Shown here one piece after another: positions 3,452-15,460 of a DNA stretch of 64,000 bases. The translations under genes and the position numbers were made by a program. The notes beneath the pieces are model-generated. The model was not told the origin of the DNA and ran no database searches. It saw only the letters and a list, made by a program, of their open reading frames with translations. The DNA is from Escherichia coli. Its GTDB lineage: Bacteria; Pseudomonadota; Gammaproteobacteria; Enterobacterales; Enterobacteriaceae. How positions within the stretch are numbered: position 1 is the stretch's first letter; every line of letters begins with the position of its first letter. The stretch lies in NCBI RefSeq assembly GCF_003790525.1, contig NZ_CP033635.1. One strand, 5' to 3'.

Positions 3452-3847
3452 TTATGAGTGGTCATTAAAGGCATCCTTAATCCACTCAACCTCATTCCCG
3501 GTGAAGGCTACCACATCGAACCGGCAATCCACAGTATCAAAACTCCCATTATGACGCGCGAGCCACAAGCGGGCAGTCTGTAATAATTTGTGTTGTTTGC
3601 TGCGGGTCACACTGGCTGCCGCGCCGCCATAAAGCGCAGAGCGGCGGTAACGCACCTCGACAAAAACGGTGGTCCTGCCTTCACGCATTATCAGATCGAT
3701 CTCGCCGCCACGCTCGTTCACGTTAGCGGCGATAAACCGCAGTCCTTTGCCTTCCAGCCAGCGACGCGCTTGTGCTTCCCACGCATCGCCGGTCTGTTTG
3801 GTGGTTAACTGGCGGGGACTACCTGACCTTGTTGGTACTGTAGCCAT
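3452..3847 (-). CDS. yraN: UPF0102 family protein YraN (131 aa)
   Basis: ORF 131 aa, conserved position; 5' end overlaps the lpoA 3' end. Confidence 0.88.
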
Positions 3848-5841
3848 GATAACTTCCTGTTAATCACGCAATCCGGGTTAGCCGTCAGACTTCCGGTATT
3901 ACCGTTGATTTCAAAACCCTGAACCTGGCGCATTTGTGAGAAATGATTTGCCAACGACCAGGCATCGACGCCCATCGCATACATGCGAGCCAGCGAATAA
4001 TCGTTGTTCACCGCGCTGAGCGCCTGCTGCATTAACGGCAGATTACCGCCTGCCAGCATCGGGATTTCGCTGTACTGCAAGCCTTCCATCTCCAGGCGGA
4101 AATCCGGGCCAGCGGTCCCTTGCGCACTGCGGGAGCTGGCGTACAGCGTTGCACCGCTCTGGCTACCGTTACGCATGGCGATCATTGGTTTGATAAAAGC
4201 GATTTCACCCGGCGTTGCCACAATGTACACCGCATCGACACGACCGCCATTATTGGTGAACTGGTCATCGGTTGGCGTGGTTTGCAGCGTTGGATTGTTG
4301 GTCGTCATGCCGGAGTCGGTTGTTTCTCTGGGAGTAATCGGGCTACCCGTTAAAGCAATACCAGAACCGCCGTTAACACCCGCGCGTAATTCGCTGGTGG
4401 AACCAAATTTTTGTTGCAGAACGGTGCCGCCACCCAGTTTCTGCCACTCTTGCGCAAACGCATTGGCTACGCGATCGCCCAATGAACTGCGTGGGATCAG
4501 CACCAGCGGCGCTTGTTTACCCTGGTCACGAATATGACGCGCTGCATCGCGCGCTTCGTCTTCCGGTGAAAGCGCGAAGTAACAAATATTGACGCGGTTT
4601 TCGATATTCTCCGGCTGGTTCAGTGCCAGCACGTTCAGCGGGGTGTTGCTCTTCAGCAACTCTTCAACGTTATTTTTCAGCAACGGACCGACCACAATAC
4701 TCGCACCATCCTGCTGAACCTGGCTTAAGATCTGGCTAAGTGGTTGTGATGAGGTATCGTAGATTTTTAGCTCTGCGGATGGATTTGCGGGTGCGCTTAC
4801 CGCTGCGGTGCTTGTCGCCGGGGCGCTTACAGGCACCGGCTGGGCCGCAGGCTGCTCACCGGTCAGATCGCTAACCGAGGCTTGTGCCGGGCTGGCAACG
4901 CCATCCACGGTTTGCGGCTGAGGTTGTTCTGCTACGTCTGCGGCAGGTGCGGCAGCTACCTGGGCCGCCACTGGCTGAGTGCCGATATTTTTCGCCGCTT
5001 CAAAGCCTTGCTGAATAGTGCGACCAAATACCGCTGCCTGGCCATTCAGTGGCAACAGCAGGGCGATTTTGTTGGTCGATGCGGGTTTAAACGCTTTTAC
5101 GTTAACCAACTGCGTTGGCAGCATTTTCGCGCCCGGGTTGTTCGGATAACGTTTCTGCCAGTCGGCGATCCCGGCTTTCATCATGTCGGGATCGTTACGG
5201 TTATCAAACCAGATGCGCTGCAGATCCAACCAGCCTTGCAGAATATTTTCGTCGGCATTGATCACGAGCGTATTCGCCTGTTCCTGAGTCATGGAGGAGA
5301 GCGCCTGCCAGGTGGCGTCAATATTCTGCTGCTTTTCTTTCGCGCCGAGCAGCGGTTCCTGAGCAATTAACGCGCGCAGTAAATCAATGGAAGGACGCCC
5401 CTGGCTGGCATCGATTTTTGCCTGCCAGTAACGCGCTTGCTGGTTTTGTTCTAAATCGGCAGGTGTGATTTTCGCCAGCAAGTTTTGCGCGCCAGCAAAA
5501 TCTTTCTGCGCCAGTTTAATCTCTGCCGCCAGCAGTGTTTTCTCGCGACGCTGAGAATCGTTCAGTTCTTGCGGTAGTTGGTTAAACAACTCCACCGCCT
5601 GTCCGGTTTTACCTTCTTTCACCAGTGCATGAATGGCGAGTAATTGCCAGTTGATCCTGGTATCATCAGAACTTTGCTGCATCTGTTGCAGGTAAAAGGC
5701 AGAATCAGCCTGCGCCGTGCCCTGCATATAAGCAGTGGACTGATCGGGAGTATGGGTGCCACAACCGGCGAAAATCAGGGCTGCCAGAACAACAGGCAGA
5801 CAACGCGCGGCTTTCAAACGAGAAAATGTTGAGGGTACCAT
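3805..5841 (-). CDS. lpoA: Penicillin-binding protein 1A activator LpoA (outer-membrane lipoprotein, 678 aa)
   Basis: ORF 3805-5871 trimmed to the start [28 protein letters not shown] (lipobox); TPR-like N-terminus, Pro/Ala-rich linker. Confidence 0.92.
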
Positions 5842-5905
5842 AATGTATCCAGTGATATTTTTTTTACGCAATGCTCAATATTAAATCGGCAATACGGACG
5901 ACACA

Positions 5906-6769
5906 ATGAAACAACACCAATCGGCGGATAATTCTCAGGGCCAGCTTTACATTGTACCGACGCCAATCGGCAATCTGGCGGATATCACCCAGCGTGCGTT
6001 GGAGGTATTACAGGCCGTTGATCTGATTGCCGCCGAGGATACGCGTCACACCGGTTTATTGCTGCAACATTTTGGGATTAATGCTCGGTTGTTTGCGCTG
6101 CACGACCATAACGAACAACAAAAAGCCGAAACGCTGCTGGCGAAGCTGCAAGAGGGGCAAAACATTGCGCTGGTTTCCGATGCCGGAACGCCGCTAATTA
6201 ACGATCCTGGCTACCATCTGGTGCGTACCTGCCGTGAAGCGGGGATTCGCGTGGTGCCGCTACCCGGGCCGTGTGCTGCTATCACTGCGTTAAGCGCCGC
6301 GGGTTTACCATCCGATCGTTTTTGTTATGAAGGCTTTTTACCTGCCAAATCAAAAGGCCGCCGTGATGCGCTAAAAGCCATTGAAGCGGAGCCGCGCACG
6401 CTGATTTTTTATGAATCTACCCACCGCCTGTTAGATAGCCTGGAAGATATCGTTGCGGTATTAGGCGAATCCCGCTACGTCGTTCTGGCGCGTGAGCTGA
6501 CCAAAACCTGGGAAACCATTCACGGCGCGCCCGTTGGCGAGCTGCTGGCGTGGGTCAAAGAAGATGAAAACCGTCGCAAAGGCGAAATGGTACTGATTGT
6601 CGAAGGCCATAAAGCACAGGAAGAAGACTTACCCGCCGATGCCCTGCGCACGCTGGCGCTGTTGCAGGCAGAACTGCCACTGAAAAAAGCGGCGGCGCTG
6701 GCAGCAGAAATTCACGGCGTGAAGAAAAATGCGCTGTATAAGTATGCACTGGAGCAGCAGGGAGAGTGA
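5906..6769 (+). CDS. rsmI: 16S rRNA (cytidine1402-2'-O)-methyltransferase RsmI (287 aa)
   Basis: [28 protein letters not shown]...; tetrapyrrole-methylase-like fold; divergent from lpoA. Confidence 0.93.
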
Positions 6770-6773
6770 TTAC

Positions 6774-6806
6774 AGGCGTTGCAGCAGGAATAGCGCTACA
6801 ACGCCT
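6774..6806. terminator. Hairpin between the convergent rsmI and agaI genes (probable bidirectional terminator)
   Basis: Inverted repeat aggcgttg...caacgcct in the 49-bp convergent intergenic gap. Confidence 0.5.
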
Positions 6807-6818
6807 TTACCAGGCGAG

Positions 6819-7586
6819 TTAACGACGACACATTTCATCAATCACGCATGTGAAATGGTTATGCAGCCATAAAAACGAAGCCGGGATAGCGGTAGAGACT
6901 TTAGCCGTGAGAAAACGTTCTGTCGCATCCTGCTTTCCTTCGCCAGTCACCAGTAGCAAAACTTCGCGGGTATTGAGAATATCCTTCAGGCCTAAGGTGA
7001 TCCCACGAGTCACGGGACGGCCCGCGGTTTTTAACATCTCATGTTGCTGTGTTCTGGCATCAAGTTGACTGATATGGCAGGCCGGTTGCAGGCTTTCTCC
7101 CGGTTCGTTCAGCCCAAGATGACCGTTTTTCCCCAATCCGAGAACGCATAAATCCAGACCGCCTTTGCGCGCAATCAGGTTCGTTACCCGTTCGCACTCT
7201 GTCTCATTTATCTCTTCAGAGCGAAAGCTGATGAGCTGGTCTTCACGCAGCCCCAGCGGCTGCACGATATGCTGTTGTAGGAAAGTTTCGCAGGTGCCAG
7301 GCATTGTTAATGGCAGATCCACCCATTCGTCGAGCTTCACGAAGGTGAGCTGGCTGACATCAACCTGCTGCTGGTGGATTTTTTCTACCAGATAATGATA
7401 CGTCAGTAATGGCGTGGCTCCGGTCGCCAGGCAAATCACGGCATCCGGTTTACTACGGATCACGGCCAATAAATATTCGCTGGCACGTTCACTTAACGCC
7501 GTATAGTTTTCAACTTGTTGAAGGGTTTGCACAGGATGAAATTCCTTAAGTAAAGAGGCACCGCCAGACGCAGTGCCTCGTTCCAT
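6819..7586 (-). CDS. agaI: Putative galactosamine-6-phosphate deaminase/isomerase AgaI (NagB family)
   Basis: ORF 255 aa, NagB-like; last gene of the agaS-kbaY-agaBCDI operon; exact start uncertain by a few codons. Confidence 0.88.
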   Translation of the reverse strand: MERGTASGGASLLKEFHPVQTLQQVENYTALSERASEYLLAVIRSKPDAVICLATGATPLLTYHYLVEKIHQQQVDVSQLTFVKLDEWVDLPLTMPGTCETFLQQHIVQPLGLREDQLISFRSEEINETECERVTNLIARKGGLDLCVLGLGKNGHLGLNEPGESLQPACHISQLDARTQQHEMLKTAGRPVTRGITLGLKDILNTREVLLLVTGEGKQDATERFLTAKVSTAIPASFLWLHNHFTCVIDEMCRR

Positions 7587-12230: not shown

Positions 12231-13364
12231 TCAAAACGAAGCTAATTGACCCTGAATCCAGATTTGTTGCACATGCAGCCCGCTATCCAGCGCAACGACG
12301 CTGGCGCGTTTGCCCGGTTTAAGCGATCCCAGAACACCATCAACACCCAGCATACGCGCCGGATGCAGCGATGCCATATGGATGGCTTCCGCAGGCGTTA
12401 CGCCCGTCAACTCGACCATGTTGCGCACTGCCGCATCGACAGACAGCGTACTGCCCGCCAGCCCACCGGACGCGGTACGGACAACGCCATCGTGCATCTG
12501 CACTTCTTCACCACATAACGTATAGCGACCATCCGGCATCCCGGCTGCCTGCATCGCGTCGGTGATCAGCACGATTCTCTCTTTCGCACAGCAACAACAC
12601 AGCGACATCGCCGCCGGATGTACATGATGACCATCGGCTATCAGTTCCAGCCAGGCGCGCTTGTCCGTTAATCCCGCGCCAACCATCCCCGGTTCGCGGT
12701 GATGTAAACCTGTCATCCCGTTATAGCAATGCACCAGGCCGTCGGCACCAGCGTCAAACGCGGCACGGGTTTGTTGCCAGGTCGCCGCGCTATGCCCCAG
12801 CATCACCCGTACGTTTTGCTGTTTAAGATAGCGGATGGCCTGCAATGCCCCTTCTTTTTCTGGTGCCAGCGCTACTACGCGCAAGGTGTGCTGAGAAACG
12901 GCAATCAATTGATCCAGCTCGGCAATTTCCAGCTCGCGAAACAGCTCCGGCGGATGCGCGCCTTTATTCTGCGGCGTGAAGTACGGTCCTTCGAGATAAC
13001 TCCCCAGCACTTGCGCACCAGGTCCGCCACGCTGGCAGCGTAGAGCAATACGTTTCAGCGCCGCATGAATGGTATTAAGCGGCGCGGTTACGGTGGTCGG
13101 TAACCAACTGCCGACACCTTCGCGTGCCTTGTGCATTGCCAGCTTGTCGAGCGCATCCGGCGCATCATCCATTACATCAACGCCCGCACCACCGTGTACA
13201 TGGGTGTCGATGTAAGCGGGACAGAGCAGTTCCGCATCGCGTTCAGTCACGCCCACTGGAATCGGTTCGATTGCTGCGATTACACCGTCAGCAATACGCA
13301 ACTGATGGTCATCGAGCCATCCCTCTTCAGTCAGCAGCCTTCTGGCGCGCAGAACGTGTGTCAT
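12231..13364 (-). CDS. agaA: N-acetylgalactosamine-6-phosphate deacetylase AgaA, full length (377 aa)
   Basis: ORF 12231-13385 trimmed to MTHVLRARRLLTEEGWLDDHQL; NagA-like amidohydrolase; intact, unlike the truncated K-12 allele. Confidence 0.9.
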   Translation of the reverse strand: MTHVLRARRLLTEEGWLDDHQLRIADGVIAAIEPIPVGVTERDAELLCPAYIDTHVHGGAGVDVMDDAPDALDKLAMHKAREGVGSWLPTTVTAPLNTIHAALKRIALRCQRGGPGAQVLGSYLEGPYFTPQNKGAHPPELFRELEIAELDQLIAVSQHTLRVVALAPEKEGALQAIRYLKQQNVRVMLGHSAATWQQTRAAFDAGADGLVHCYNGMTGLHHREPGMVGAGLTDKRAWLELIADGHHVHPAAMSLCCCCAKERIVLITDAMQAAGMPDGRYTLCGEEVQMHDGVVRTASGGLAGSTLSVDAAVRNMVELTGVTPAEAIHMASLHPARMLGVDGVLGSLKPGKRASVVALDSGLHVQQIWIQGQLASF

Positions 13365-13795
13365 ATTCCTTCCTCGACCGGACATTCCTCATGGCAGCGA
13401 CCAAGTTCGTCCACCAGACTGGTTAGCCCACGGTGTCCACACTCCAGCGCCTGCACACGGAACTCTTCACCGCTTAACCCTTCGCGTTCCAGCACCATTT
13501 CCAGTAATAGTTGCAAATTTGTGCCGGTGATCACTTCACAGCCCGGTTTTTGCATCGCCAGCGTTGAAGCTACGCGAAACGGCGTGCCGCCCAGCAAATC
13601 CGTCAGAAAAACAATGCCGTCTTCACAATCCAGTTGGACGATGGCCTCTTCAAGCTGCGATGTAAGCAGCGCGGTGCTTGAGGTTTCCGGAAAATCGATG
13701 GCGATAAACTGCGATTGCTCACCGAGAATTTGCTTCATTGCTTTTTCCATGCCGCTGGCAAATCCGCCATGCCCTGTCAAAATAATACTTAACAT
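13361..13795 (-). CDS. agaF: PTS N-acetylgalactosamine-specific EIIA component AgaF (144 aa)
   Basis: MLSIILTGHGGFASGMEKAMKQILG (mannose-family IIA); 4-bp overlap with the agaA start. Confidence 0.9.
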   Translation of the reverse strand: MLSIILTGHGGFASGMEKAMKQILGEQSQFIAIDFPETSSTALLTSQLEEAIVQLDCEDGIVFLTDLLGGTPFRVASTLAMQKPGCEVITGTNLQLLLEMVLEREGLSGEEFRVQALECGHRGLTSLVDELGRCHEECPVEEGI

Positions 13796-13812
13796 CTAAT
13801 ACCTCATTGTAT

Positions 13813-14697
13813 TTAAAGGAAATGGCAGAATTTACCGACGATGCCGAGAACCACGGTAACCGCAATCAGGCGCAGCGGACTCCAGCCGCGGCGTACCAGC
13901 CAGAACATGGTCAGGGTGTAGACCAGCGGTAAGAAGGCTGGCATCAGTTTGTCGATAACATCAGCCTGTAACTTAACCACTGCGTCGCCCGCGGTGATTT
14001 CCAGCGTGGTGCTTAAACGAACATAGGTTGCCACCAGCGCGCCGATTACCGTCATCCCAACGATAGATGCCGCATGGCCGACTTTTTTGGTATTTGCTTT
14101 AATGAGTGGAATCGCCGCCACGCCCATGCGGTAAGCATAATGCGCCAGACCAAAACGCAGCCCCAGGTGCACCACGTTGAACAGCACAATAAAGACGACA
14201 GCGCCAAGAATAGAGCCTTGTAGCGCGAGGCTTGCACCTATCCCGCCACAAATCGGCAGTAGCGTTAGCCAGAACATCGCATCGCCAATCCCGCCGAGCG
14301 GCGCACCGACGGCAATTTTGGTGCTCTGAATACTGTTAACGTCCTGCTTAGAACGCTCCATCGCAAGGATAATGCCGATAACAAACGTCACCAGAAACGG
14401 ATGGGTATTGAAGAAACCCATATGCCCCTTCATGGCGCGCGCCAGGTCGCGTTTATTAGTGTGGATCTTTTTCAGAGCAGGCAGCAGACCGTACAACCAG
14501 CCAGAAGCCTGCATACGTTCGTAGTTAAAAGACGCTTGTAACAGCATGGAACGCCAGGCGACGCGGTTGATATCTTTTTTCGTCAGCTCTGCGCCAATGC
14601 TCTGATCTTCATACACGTTTTCATTGACACCTGTCAGCAGTGTTTCTTCGTTTTCACTGACGTTCGGCAGGGTAGTTTGATTAGATGCCATCTTCAA
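13813..14697 (-). CDS. agaE: PTS N-acetylgalactosamine-specific EIID component AgaE
   Basis: ORF 294 aa; ...RVAWRSMLLQASFNYERMQASG IID signature; paralogue of AgaD. Confidence 0.9.
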   Translation of the reverse strand: MKMASNQTTLPNVSENEETLLTGVNENVYEDQSIGAELTKKDINRVAWRSMLLQASFNYERMQASGWLYGLLPALKKIHTNKRDLARAMKGHMGFFNTHPFLVTFVIGIILAMERSKQDVNSIQSTKIAVGAPLGGIGDAMFWLTLLPICGGIGASLALQGSILGAVVFIVLFNVVHLGLRFGLAHYAYRMGVAAIPLIKANTKKVGHAASIVGMTVIGALVATYVRLSTTLEITAGDAVVKLQADVIDKLMPAFLPLVYTLTMFWLVRRGWSPLRLIAVTVVLGIVGKFCHFL

Positions 14698-15460
14698 ATT
14701 CCTCTTTCTGTGCCGCAGGTTGAGTCGGTTCAGGAGATTTACGCAGCAAGTCGATCAGCGCCATCGCCAGCGCGGCGGCAGCAATAGCCAGCACCGGTAA
14801 CTTGAGCCAGGCTGCGGCAACAAAGCCCAGGATGAAGTAGGGGATGTAGACGTTTTTCATCATGATTTTCAGCAGCACGGCAAAACCGATTGCTGGCATG
14901 ATGCCACCCGCGACGCCGAGGCCGTCGATTAATCGTTGCGGCAGGACATCAATGATGGTTTTGGCATGTTCTGCGCCGAAGTAGATAGGCAGGAAAGCGC
15001 AGAGAAAATAGAACGTGCCGAGTGCCAGCAATGCCAGATAGTTCACGCGTTCAATGCCGCGAGTATCGGCGTTCTCCGCCATCCGGTCGCAGCGGGACAT
15101 CACGCCGGACATCACCGAGAACAGGAAGGTAATCCCCATCTGTACTGCGACAGCGAAAGGTACGGCGACACCGACCGCGACATCCGGTTTCACGCCAGTA
15201 GTAATGGCAAACGCCGTGCCGACGATAGTACCGATAATCACGTTAGGCGGTTGTGCGCCTGCCAGCGGGGCCAGCCCCATCCACACCAGTTCCAGCGTAC
15301 CGCCGGTTAAAATACCGGTATGCAGATCGCCAAGTACCAGTCCGACCAACGGGCCGAGGACCACCGGGCGGTGCATATGGGTTAGGCCGTTAAACATATC
15401 CAGGCCAGCGATAAAGGCGATAATGCCCAACGCGAATGCCTGCAACAGACTGATTTCCAT
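14681..15460 (-). CDS. agaW: PTS N-acetylgalactosamine-specific EIIC component AgaW, full length (259 aa)
   Basis: ORF 259 aa, IIC paralogue of AgaC; intact here. Confidence 0.9.
   Translation of the reverse strand: MEISLLQAFALGIIAFIAGLDMFNGLTHMHRPVVLGPLVGLVLGDLHTGILTGGTLELVWMGLAPLAGAQPPNVIIGTIVGTAFAITTGVKPDVAVGVAVPFAVAVQMGITFLFSVMSGVMSRCDRMAENADTRGIERVNYLALLALGTFYFLCAFLPIYFGAEHAKTIIDVLPQRLIDGLGVAGGIMPAIGFAVLLKIMMKNVYIPYFILGFVAAAWLKLPVLAIAAAALAMALIDLLRKSPEPTQPAAQKEEFEDGI

Follow-up and report, generated by a model that had tools for sequence, protein, structure and literature searches.

Why do rsmI and agaI face each other across a short spacer in the stretch of Escherichia coli DNA analyzed here (hereafter the window, 64,000 nucleotides in all), when in K-12 the cryptic chaperone-usher operon yraHIJK, of the gamma-1 type, occupies exactly this position? 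The empty site may be ancestral, or it may be what a clean deletion of the operon has left behind. We addressed this issue by comparing the junction with K-12, with complete E. coli genomes, with other Escherichia species, and with related genera.

The rsmI–agaI Junction and Its Exact Ends

A sequence-only reading of the window had proposed that rsmI and agaI are directly convergent, with 49 bp containing a hairpin between their stops; the coordinates of the open reading frames and the predicted fold both confirm this arrangement, which comprises the following features:

5906–6769, + strand: rsmI (16S rRNA C1402 2'-O-methyltransferase), 287-aa ORF, stop codon TGA at 6767–6769, C-terminus ...EQQGE
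6763–6861: haplotype-specific block, running from the final 7 nt of rsmI across the spacer through the final 43 nt of agaI
6770–6818: spacer between the convergent rsmI and agaI stops, exactly 49 bp as counted from the sequence, the uninterrupted counterpart of the K-12 yraHIJK site
6774–6806, − strand (the better-pairing sense, that of the aga transcript): G+C-rich hairpin with a 13-bp stem and a 7-nt loop
6819–7586, − strand: agaI (galactosamine-6-phosphate isomerase/deaminase), 255-aa ORF, C-terminus ...LHNHFTCVIDEMCRR

The two gene products match NCBIfam families PRK14994 (16S rRNA C1402 2'-O-methyltransferase; 629 bits, cut-off 502) and PRK09762 (galactosamine-6-phosphate isomerase; 472 bits, cut-off 271), respectively. 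Window RsmI is identical to K-12 RsmI at 286/286 positions and carries one additional C-terminal glutamate (287 vs. 286 aa, the K-12 protein ending in ...EQQG). AgaI, encoded by the terminal gene of the agaS-kbaY-agaBCDI operon, whose stop codon reads TTA on the + strand at 6819–6821, is 97% identical to K-12 AgaI over 250 aa, and the tails of the two proteins differ. The lpoA ORF at 3805–5871 (− strand), taken in its 688-aa TTG-extended form, is 98.8% identical to K-12 LpoA; it had no match in the NCBIfam search at E ≤ 0.001, which probably reflects a gap in the library and not a peculiarity of the gene itself. In the window, the aga/gam cluster is complete, with agaA/nagA, agaF, agaE, and agaW at about 12231–15460, as mapped from strain SC516. 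The annotation of this identical strain shows agaV, W, E, F, and A intact, whereas in K-12 agaW and agaA are pseudogenes and agaE and agaF are missing.

Alignment of the window with K-12 locates the limits of the junction precisely. On the rsmI side, homology breaks off at the stop codon, where the window reads ...CAGCAGGG AGAGTGA (RsmI ...QQGE) and K-12 reads ...CAGCAGGG GTAA (...QQG); on the agaI side, it picks up again within the gene, some 43 nt before its 3' end. The megablast matches of yra-bearing genomes end at window position 6762 and restart at 6862. The AgaI tails are still recognizably related as protein (LHNHFTCVIDEMCRR in the window vs. LHSNFICLINT in K-12), and the hairpins found 3' of rsmI in the window and in K-12 have stem sequence in common (GCGTTGC...GCAACG), which indicates that the flanks are homologous and very diverged, rather than unrelated.

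The yraHIJK Block of K-12 and the Search for Its Remnants

The RefSeq annotation of K-12 MG1655 (NC_000913.3) gives the gene order agaI-yraH-yraI-yraJ-yraK-rsmI. The position that the sequence-only reading had given for yraHIJK was thus correct, and the adjacency of rsmI and agaI in K-12 that it had named as the observation that might overturn it was not seen. The K-12-specific material between the two genes amounts to about 5.45 kb, and Fimbrial (PF00419), PapD_N/C (PapD-like chaperone; PF00345/PF02753), Usher/PapC_N/C (Usher; PF00577), and again Fimbrial domains were confirmed in the Yra proteins. The block has a G+C content of 45.3%, compared with 50.6–53.4% in its flanks, and the value falls to 27.2% in the region preceding yraH; this lower G+C is the sole supporting sign of a foreign origin. 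A boundary search (locus L001:6900-12600) revealed neither direct nor inverted repeats at its ends, and the block lacks any mobility gene, the four fimbrial genes being the only ones annotated there. It thus does not have the make-up of a mobile genomic island, that is, flanking direct repeats, an integrase or transposase, or a tRNA target. Between K-12 and E. whittamii, dS is higher in the yra genes (0.67–0.88) than in the flanking genes (0.32–0.55).

The window holds no yra gene, fragment, or scar. When the K-12 YraH, YraI, YraJ, and YraK proteins were searched against the whole window with tblastn, there was no match at E ≤ 1e-10 and only noise at E ≤ 10, which, together with the 49-bp gap itself, upholds the absence of the operon as first claimed. 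Residual fragments of yraH or yraK, which it had been proposed to look for, are lacking at the junction: comparison of 6763–6861 with the K-12 island (blastn-short, word size 7; Smith-Waterman, 200 shuffles) gave chance-level words only, with the exception of the homologous rsmI-proximal hairpin. An operon of the yraHIJK type, defined by Usher, PapD-like chaperone, and Fimbrial genes at the agaI–rsmI site, is therefore not found in the window.

The Hairpin in the Spacer

On the − strand, the hairpin folds with 13 pairs and −23.3 kcal/mol (z = −3.9, none of 200 shuffles being as good); for the + strand, the values are −17 kcal/mol and z = −1.9. All 13 pairs can form on the − strand in five of the seven related Escherichia variants; the + strand retains fewer, as several substitutions that yield G·U in one sense yield C·A in the opposite sense. 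At pair 6778/6802, strain E69 shows a compensatory change from G-C to A-T. The spacers of Citrobacter farmeri and Lelliottia amnigena contain one strong hairpin each, unrelated in sequence to that of the window.

The possibility that this structure is a canonical Rho-independent terminator was considered and rejected: the stem is G+C-rich, but no U-tract follows it on either side (TTTACCAGG on the + strand, TGTAATCAC on the − strand). A scan of 6400–7200 detected no terminator-like or promoter sites, and no Rfam family matched the spacer at E ≤ 1. A REP/BIME element or another dispersed repeat is ruled out by copy number, since the 99-bp junction block has exactly one match per genome in 1,204 genomes. 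Because each outgroup spacer also contains one strong hairpin, a conserved role as stem-loop or barrier can be envisaged from this small sample; we would give about even odds to a conserved function in which the hairpin is the 3' stem-loop of the aga operon mRNA and separates the two converging transcripts as a barrier.

The Junction in Other Enterobacteria and Escherichia Species

Species were surveyed by an AgaI search in one genome per species followed by inspection of the neighborhoods, and AgaI homologs of other genera were then looked up on their contigs. The arrangements found at the site were the following:

E. albertii: agaI and rsmI directly joined, 49-bp spacer as in the window
Escherichia sp. 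E1V33: agaI and rsmI directly joined, 49-bp spacer as in the window
Strain E69 (labeled E. coli): agaI and rsmI directly joined, 49-bp spacer as in the window
E. whittamii: yraHIJK at the agaI–rsmI site, 83–90% aa identity to K-12
Escherichia sp. MOD1-EC7003 (L007:10742-16170): far more divergent four-gene chaperone-usher operon at the agaI–rsmI site, 53–65% aa identity to YraHIJK, G+C 42.5%
Trabulsiella odontotermitis: agaI directly facing rsmI, aligned gene ends 138 bp apart, with REP-like repeats between them that are unrelated to the spacer sequence of the window
Citrobacter farmeri: agaD-agaI> <rsmI-lpoA-yraN-diaA-dolP, 52-bp spacer
Lelliottia amnigena: arrangement as in Citrobacter farmeri (agaI convergent with rsmI), 39-bp spacer

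The direct convergence of agaI and rsmI in Citrobacter, Lelliottia, and Trabulsiella indicates that their adjacency predates the genus Escherichia. Within the genus, both states occur, the site being empty in E. albertii, E1V33, and E69 and occupied in E. whittamii and MOD1-EC7003. Moreover, the 49-bp spacer of the window aligns without gaps with those of E. albertii, E1V33, E69, ST131, DCE7, and RMDEC465, so that the junction is not only adjacent in outgroup genera but also orthologous across species, with no fragment of an inserted element. On this comparative sequence evidence, the junction in the window is the ancestral empty site and K-12 represents the derived, occupied state. The choice between ancestral site and clean deletion, which the sequence-only reading had left to alignment, thus falls on the former through outgroup adjacency and the orthology of the spacer.

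The operon of MOD1-EC7003 looks like a whole fimbrial operon replaced allelically at one locus. The rsmI genes of the two yra-bearing species, E. whittamii and MOD1-EC7003, are themselves unusually diverged, with dS values of 0.55–0.80 to all other Escherichia and only 84–87% identity over their last 600 nt, which is about as much as for Trabulsiella; this hints that in both the rsmI flank travelled along with the fimbrial block. In Salmonella enterica (CP040601.1, L016:6470-7720), a lone agaI homolog (72% identity) stands beside a 58-aa C-terminal fragment of RsmI, flanked by a galactitol/tagatose operon and by Rhs/T6SS genes, and looks like a moved or decayed relic of the agaI–rsmI junction.

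Distribution in E. coli

Counts were made over 5,426 complete E. coli genomes; the strains sampled individually cover only some of its phylogroups. A contiguous rsmI–agaI junction was found in 1,835 of the 5,426 genomes and yra-island sequence in 3,523, of which 3,264 have at least 80% of the island. In several genomes, O157:H7 included, the island contains IS1 or IS1203 insertions. K-12, BL21, O111:H8, O121, and O157:H7 are yra carriers, and the empty haplotype is present in O25b:H4-ST131, in a Nissle 1917 derivative, and in SMS-3-5, IAI39, and CE10. Over its first 25 kb, the window is about 100% identical to SMS-3-5 and 99.2–99.3% identical to IAI39 and CE10, all three of them phylogroup F strains; together, the sampled empty strains (SMS-3-5, IAI39, CE10, ST131, Nissle) fall into phylogroups B2 and F.

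A third state is shared by 31 complete genomes of the O145 type, in which genes for an MBL-fold hydrolase and a LysR regulator, an agaB fragment, and MalY/PatB-like and MalX-like PTS genes replace agaBCDI. In E. coli O145 RM12275-C1 (L010:8501-13768), this cassette starts one base past the rsmI stop, has a G+C content of 46.0%, and follows an rsmI ending in ...QQGE. At least four states therefore occur directly downstream of the rsmI stop, namely the empty junction, the K-12-type yra operon, the yra-like operon of MOD1-EC7003, and the O145 cassette, and the proposed turnover of fimbrial gene content at a fixed site holds well. In E. coli EC25 (L009:5058-6136), only an IS1 stands between a truncated gene for an aromatic amino acid transporter and the final 136 bp of the yra island beside agaI, which implies that an IS1-mediated deletion took everything from the transporter gene through rsmI and yraHIJK.

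The yra genes have been listed among the genes specific to phylogroups A/B1 in comparison with B2 UPEC isolates (PMC4128348), and the distribution of the junction and of yra in the sampled strains agrees with that report and with PMC3559732. The variable presence of yra and the adjacency of agaI and rsmI in non-K-12 strains are, for their part, already published (PMC3559732, PMC4128348, PMC8553829).

Divergence and Age of the Two Junction Haplotypes

Over 600 nt of gene body, rsmI and agaI are 97–98% identical between the window and K-12 and group by species. The final 30 nt of agaI behave differently: here the window shares 87% identity with E. albertii and only 57% with K-12, and for K-12 the values are 80% with E. 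whittamii and 77% with MOD1-EC7003. The transition is sharp: window and K-12 agaI differ at 14 positions in the first 50 bp counted from codon 250 and at 0–3 positions per 50 bp over the next kilobase. Block 6763–6861 as a whole is conserved among empty-site Escherichia (87–97% identity between the window and E. albertii, E1V33, and E69) and strongly diverged from the yra-bearing haplotype. These approximately 100 bp group by haplotype and not by species, which argues that both states are old. We infer, from a clustering of only about 100 bp and few taxa, two old haplotypes common to several species, in which the junction block would stay with its own state of the site, occupied or empty, as recombination homogenized its neighbors within each species.

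The rsmI stop of the yra haplotype (GGG TAA) lies where it does in Trabulsiella and Citrobacter; in the empty Escherichia haplotype (GGG GAG TGA), it is preceded by an extra Glu codon that looks derived. Because it is the yra haplotype that matches the outgroups here, the history within the genus may exceed one insertion, for example by re-acquisition of the empty allele through recombination. One might go further and see in the agaI/rsmI site an ancient trans-species presence/absence polymorphism under selection, in which the empty, K-12-type yra, and 53–65% divergent yra-like states are each locked to a flank of about 100 bp that cannot be recombined and that includes alternative AgaI and RsmI C-termini. 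We consider this proposal rather doubtful and put it forward tentatively; were it true, the locus would be a long-lived allele series rather than the product of a simple history of gains and losses.

Origin of the Empty Junction

The account that we favor, with a probability of about 0.88, is that the junction in the window was never interrupted, that yra was inserted in some lineages, and that both states are old and each tied to its own haplotype. In the ancestral enterobacterial layout, rsmI and the aga/gam operon, with agaI as its last gene, would converge on a short spacer with a single G+C-rich hairpin. Acting mainly in the sense of the aga transcript, this hairpin may stabilize or end the aga mRNA and limit read-through into rsmI antisense. 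The lower-G+C yraHIJK operon (about 5.45 kb, with its own upstream region of 27% G+C) would have been inserted with the rsmI-proximal hairpin on one side and the agaI stop on the other, and the last few codons of both rsmI and agaI would have been rewritten by this event. The lineages concerned would be those of K-12, BL21, the sampled O111, O121, and O157 strains, and E. whittamii, with a divergent allele in MOD1-EC7003, whereas the SMS-3-5-like lineage of the window would have remained untouched. That the empty and yra states coexist in E. coli is explained by the approximately 100 bp around the junction, which are too diverged to recombine. The presence of yra-type operons in E. whittamii and MOD1-EC7003 counts against this account to the extent that several orders of gain and loss within the genus may be compatible with it.

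The same operons, which sit in deep Escherichia branches, would also fit a secondary clean deletion, in which a yraHIJK-bearing ancestor lost the operon precisely and the ends of rsmI and agaI were fused. Such a deletion would agree with the position of the rsmI stop, identical in the yra haplotype and in Trabulsiella and Citrobacter and one codon further in the empty Escherichia haplotype, and genuine deletions do happen at this locus, as the IS1-associated loss in EC25 illustrates. However, that known recent case left behind 136 bp of the island together with an IS1, in contrast to the junction in the window, where yra remnants are absent. A deletion, moreover, cannot create about 100 bp of haplotype-specific sequence (6763–6861) that is 87–97% common to E. 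albertii, E1V33, and E69, and direct adjacency is also seen in three other genera. We therefore regard a clean deletion as quite improbable, and a recent one at this junction is largely refuted. An even slighter chance is left to allelic replacement, by which a lineage that was once yra-positive would have regained the empty junction through homologous recombination from a yra-less E. coli phylogroup or from another Escherichia species. The flanking gene bodies are homogenized in E. coli (97–98% identity between the window and K-12), which reveals frequent recombination here, and both junction haplotypes cross species boundaries. Against this, no mosaic signal for a foreign donor was seen, and the junction in the window is 87–90% identical to that of E. 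albertii, as predicted by vertical descent, flanking-gene dS being 0.29–0.46. Retention is also the simplest reading of the fact that the sampled B2 and F strains are all empty.

The locus provides one clean and fully resolved case in which fimbrial gene content turns over at a constant chromosomal position, whose exact boundaries are the stop codons of two conserved genes. The empty junction itself is ordinary and already known; the mildly unusual part is the sharp haplotype-linked divergence and the apparent age of the polymorphism. The few bases beside an insertion or deletion can keep a far older history than the recombination-homogenized genes that surround them. Beyond this, the significance is small and largely a matter of bookkeeping, K-12 being shown as the derived state at the locus.

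Comparison with Known Systems

Among known systems, one close counterpart is the yraHIJK locus of K-12 itself, from which the window differs by the vacancy of the site and by its AgaI and RsmI ends. A class 5 fimbrial cluster had been noted between exuR and exuT as an addition relative to K-12, and it is indeed present in the window, exuT and exuR being only 129 bp apart in K-12:

48507–49283: exuR
49573–54685: class 5/alpha fimbrial cluster of four genes (chaperone, CS1-type major subunit, TcfC-like usher, and CfaE/CblD tip adhesin), G+C 45.6%
54761–56059: exuT

Its content was read from the annotated strain SC516, which is 99.99% collinear with the window. PMC3032704 lists an eafABCD cluster of the alpha (class 5) group in E. 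coli W and in Crooks. It is of the same type and map order as the exuR–exuT cluster, which lies about 43 kb from the rsmI–agaI junction, and the two are probably the same cluster, to judge from the order in the published table and from annotation rather than from an alignment to strain W.

Many chaperone-usher operons are described as clade-specific at fixed positions by Wurpel et al. (2013, PMC3559732), for example Yqi/Yqi-like and Auf/Ycb. The agaI–rsmI site resembles these loci by its lineage-dependent presence or absence of an operon at one syntenic position and by the divergent allele (53–65% aa identity) of MOD1-EC7003. It differs from them in that the alternative is not only a rival fimbrial operon but a truly empty ancestral junction or the non-fimbrial O145 cassette.

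Finally, the agaI/rsmI spacer is known as an intergenic site between convergent ORFs that is suited to insertion in E. coli Nissle, and it has been used as such in SYNB1618, SYNB1934, and SYNB8802 (PMC8553829, PMC9894410). The neutral insertion site of these engineered Nissle therapeutics is thus the ancestral enterobacterial junction, carried by about one-third of complete E. coli genomes. The site in Nissle 1917 is like the window in its convergent genes, spacer, and hairpin haplotype, although Nissle belongs to a lineage different from the SMS-3-5-like one of the window. In the SYNB1934 record (L014:1-340), the right half of the hairpin (the 3' stem arm) and the end of agaI are native and 98.5% identical to the window; the end of the cassette, with its FRT scar and repeated linkers, splits the hairpin there, whereas in the window the hairpin is intact.
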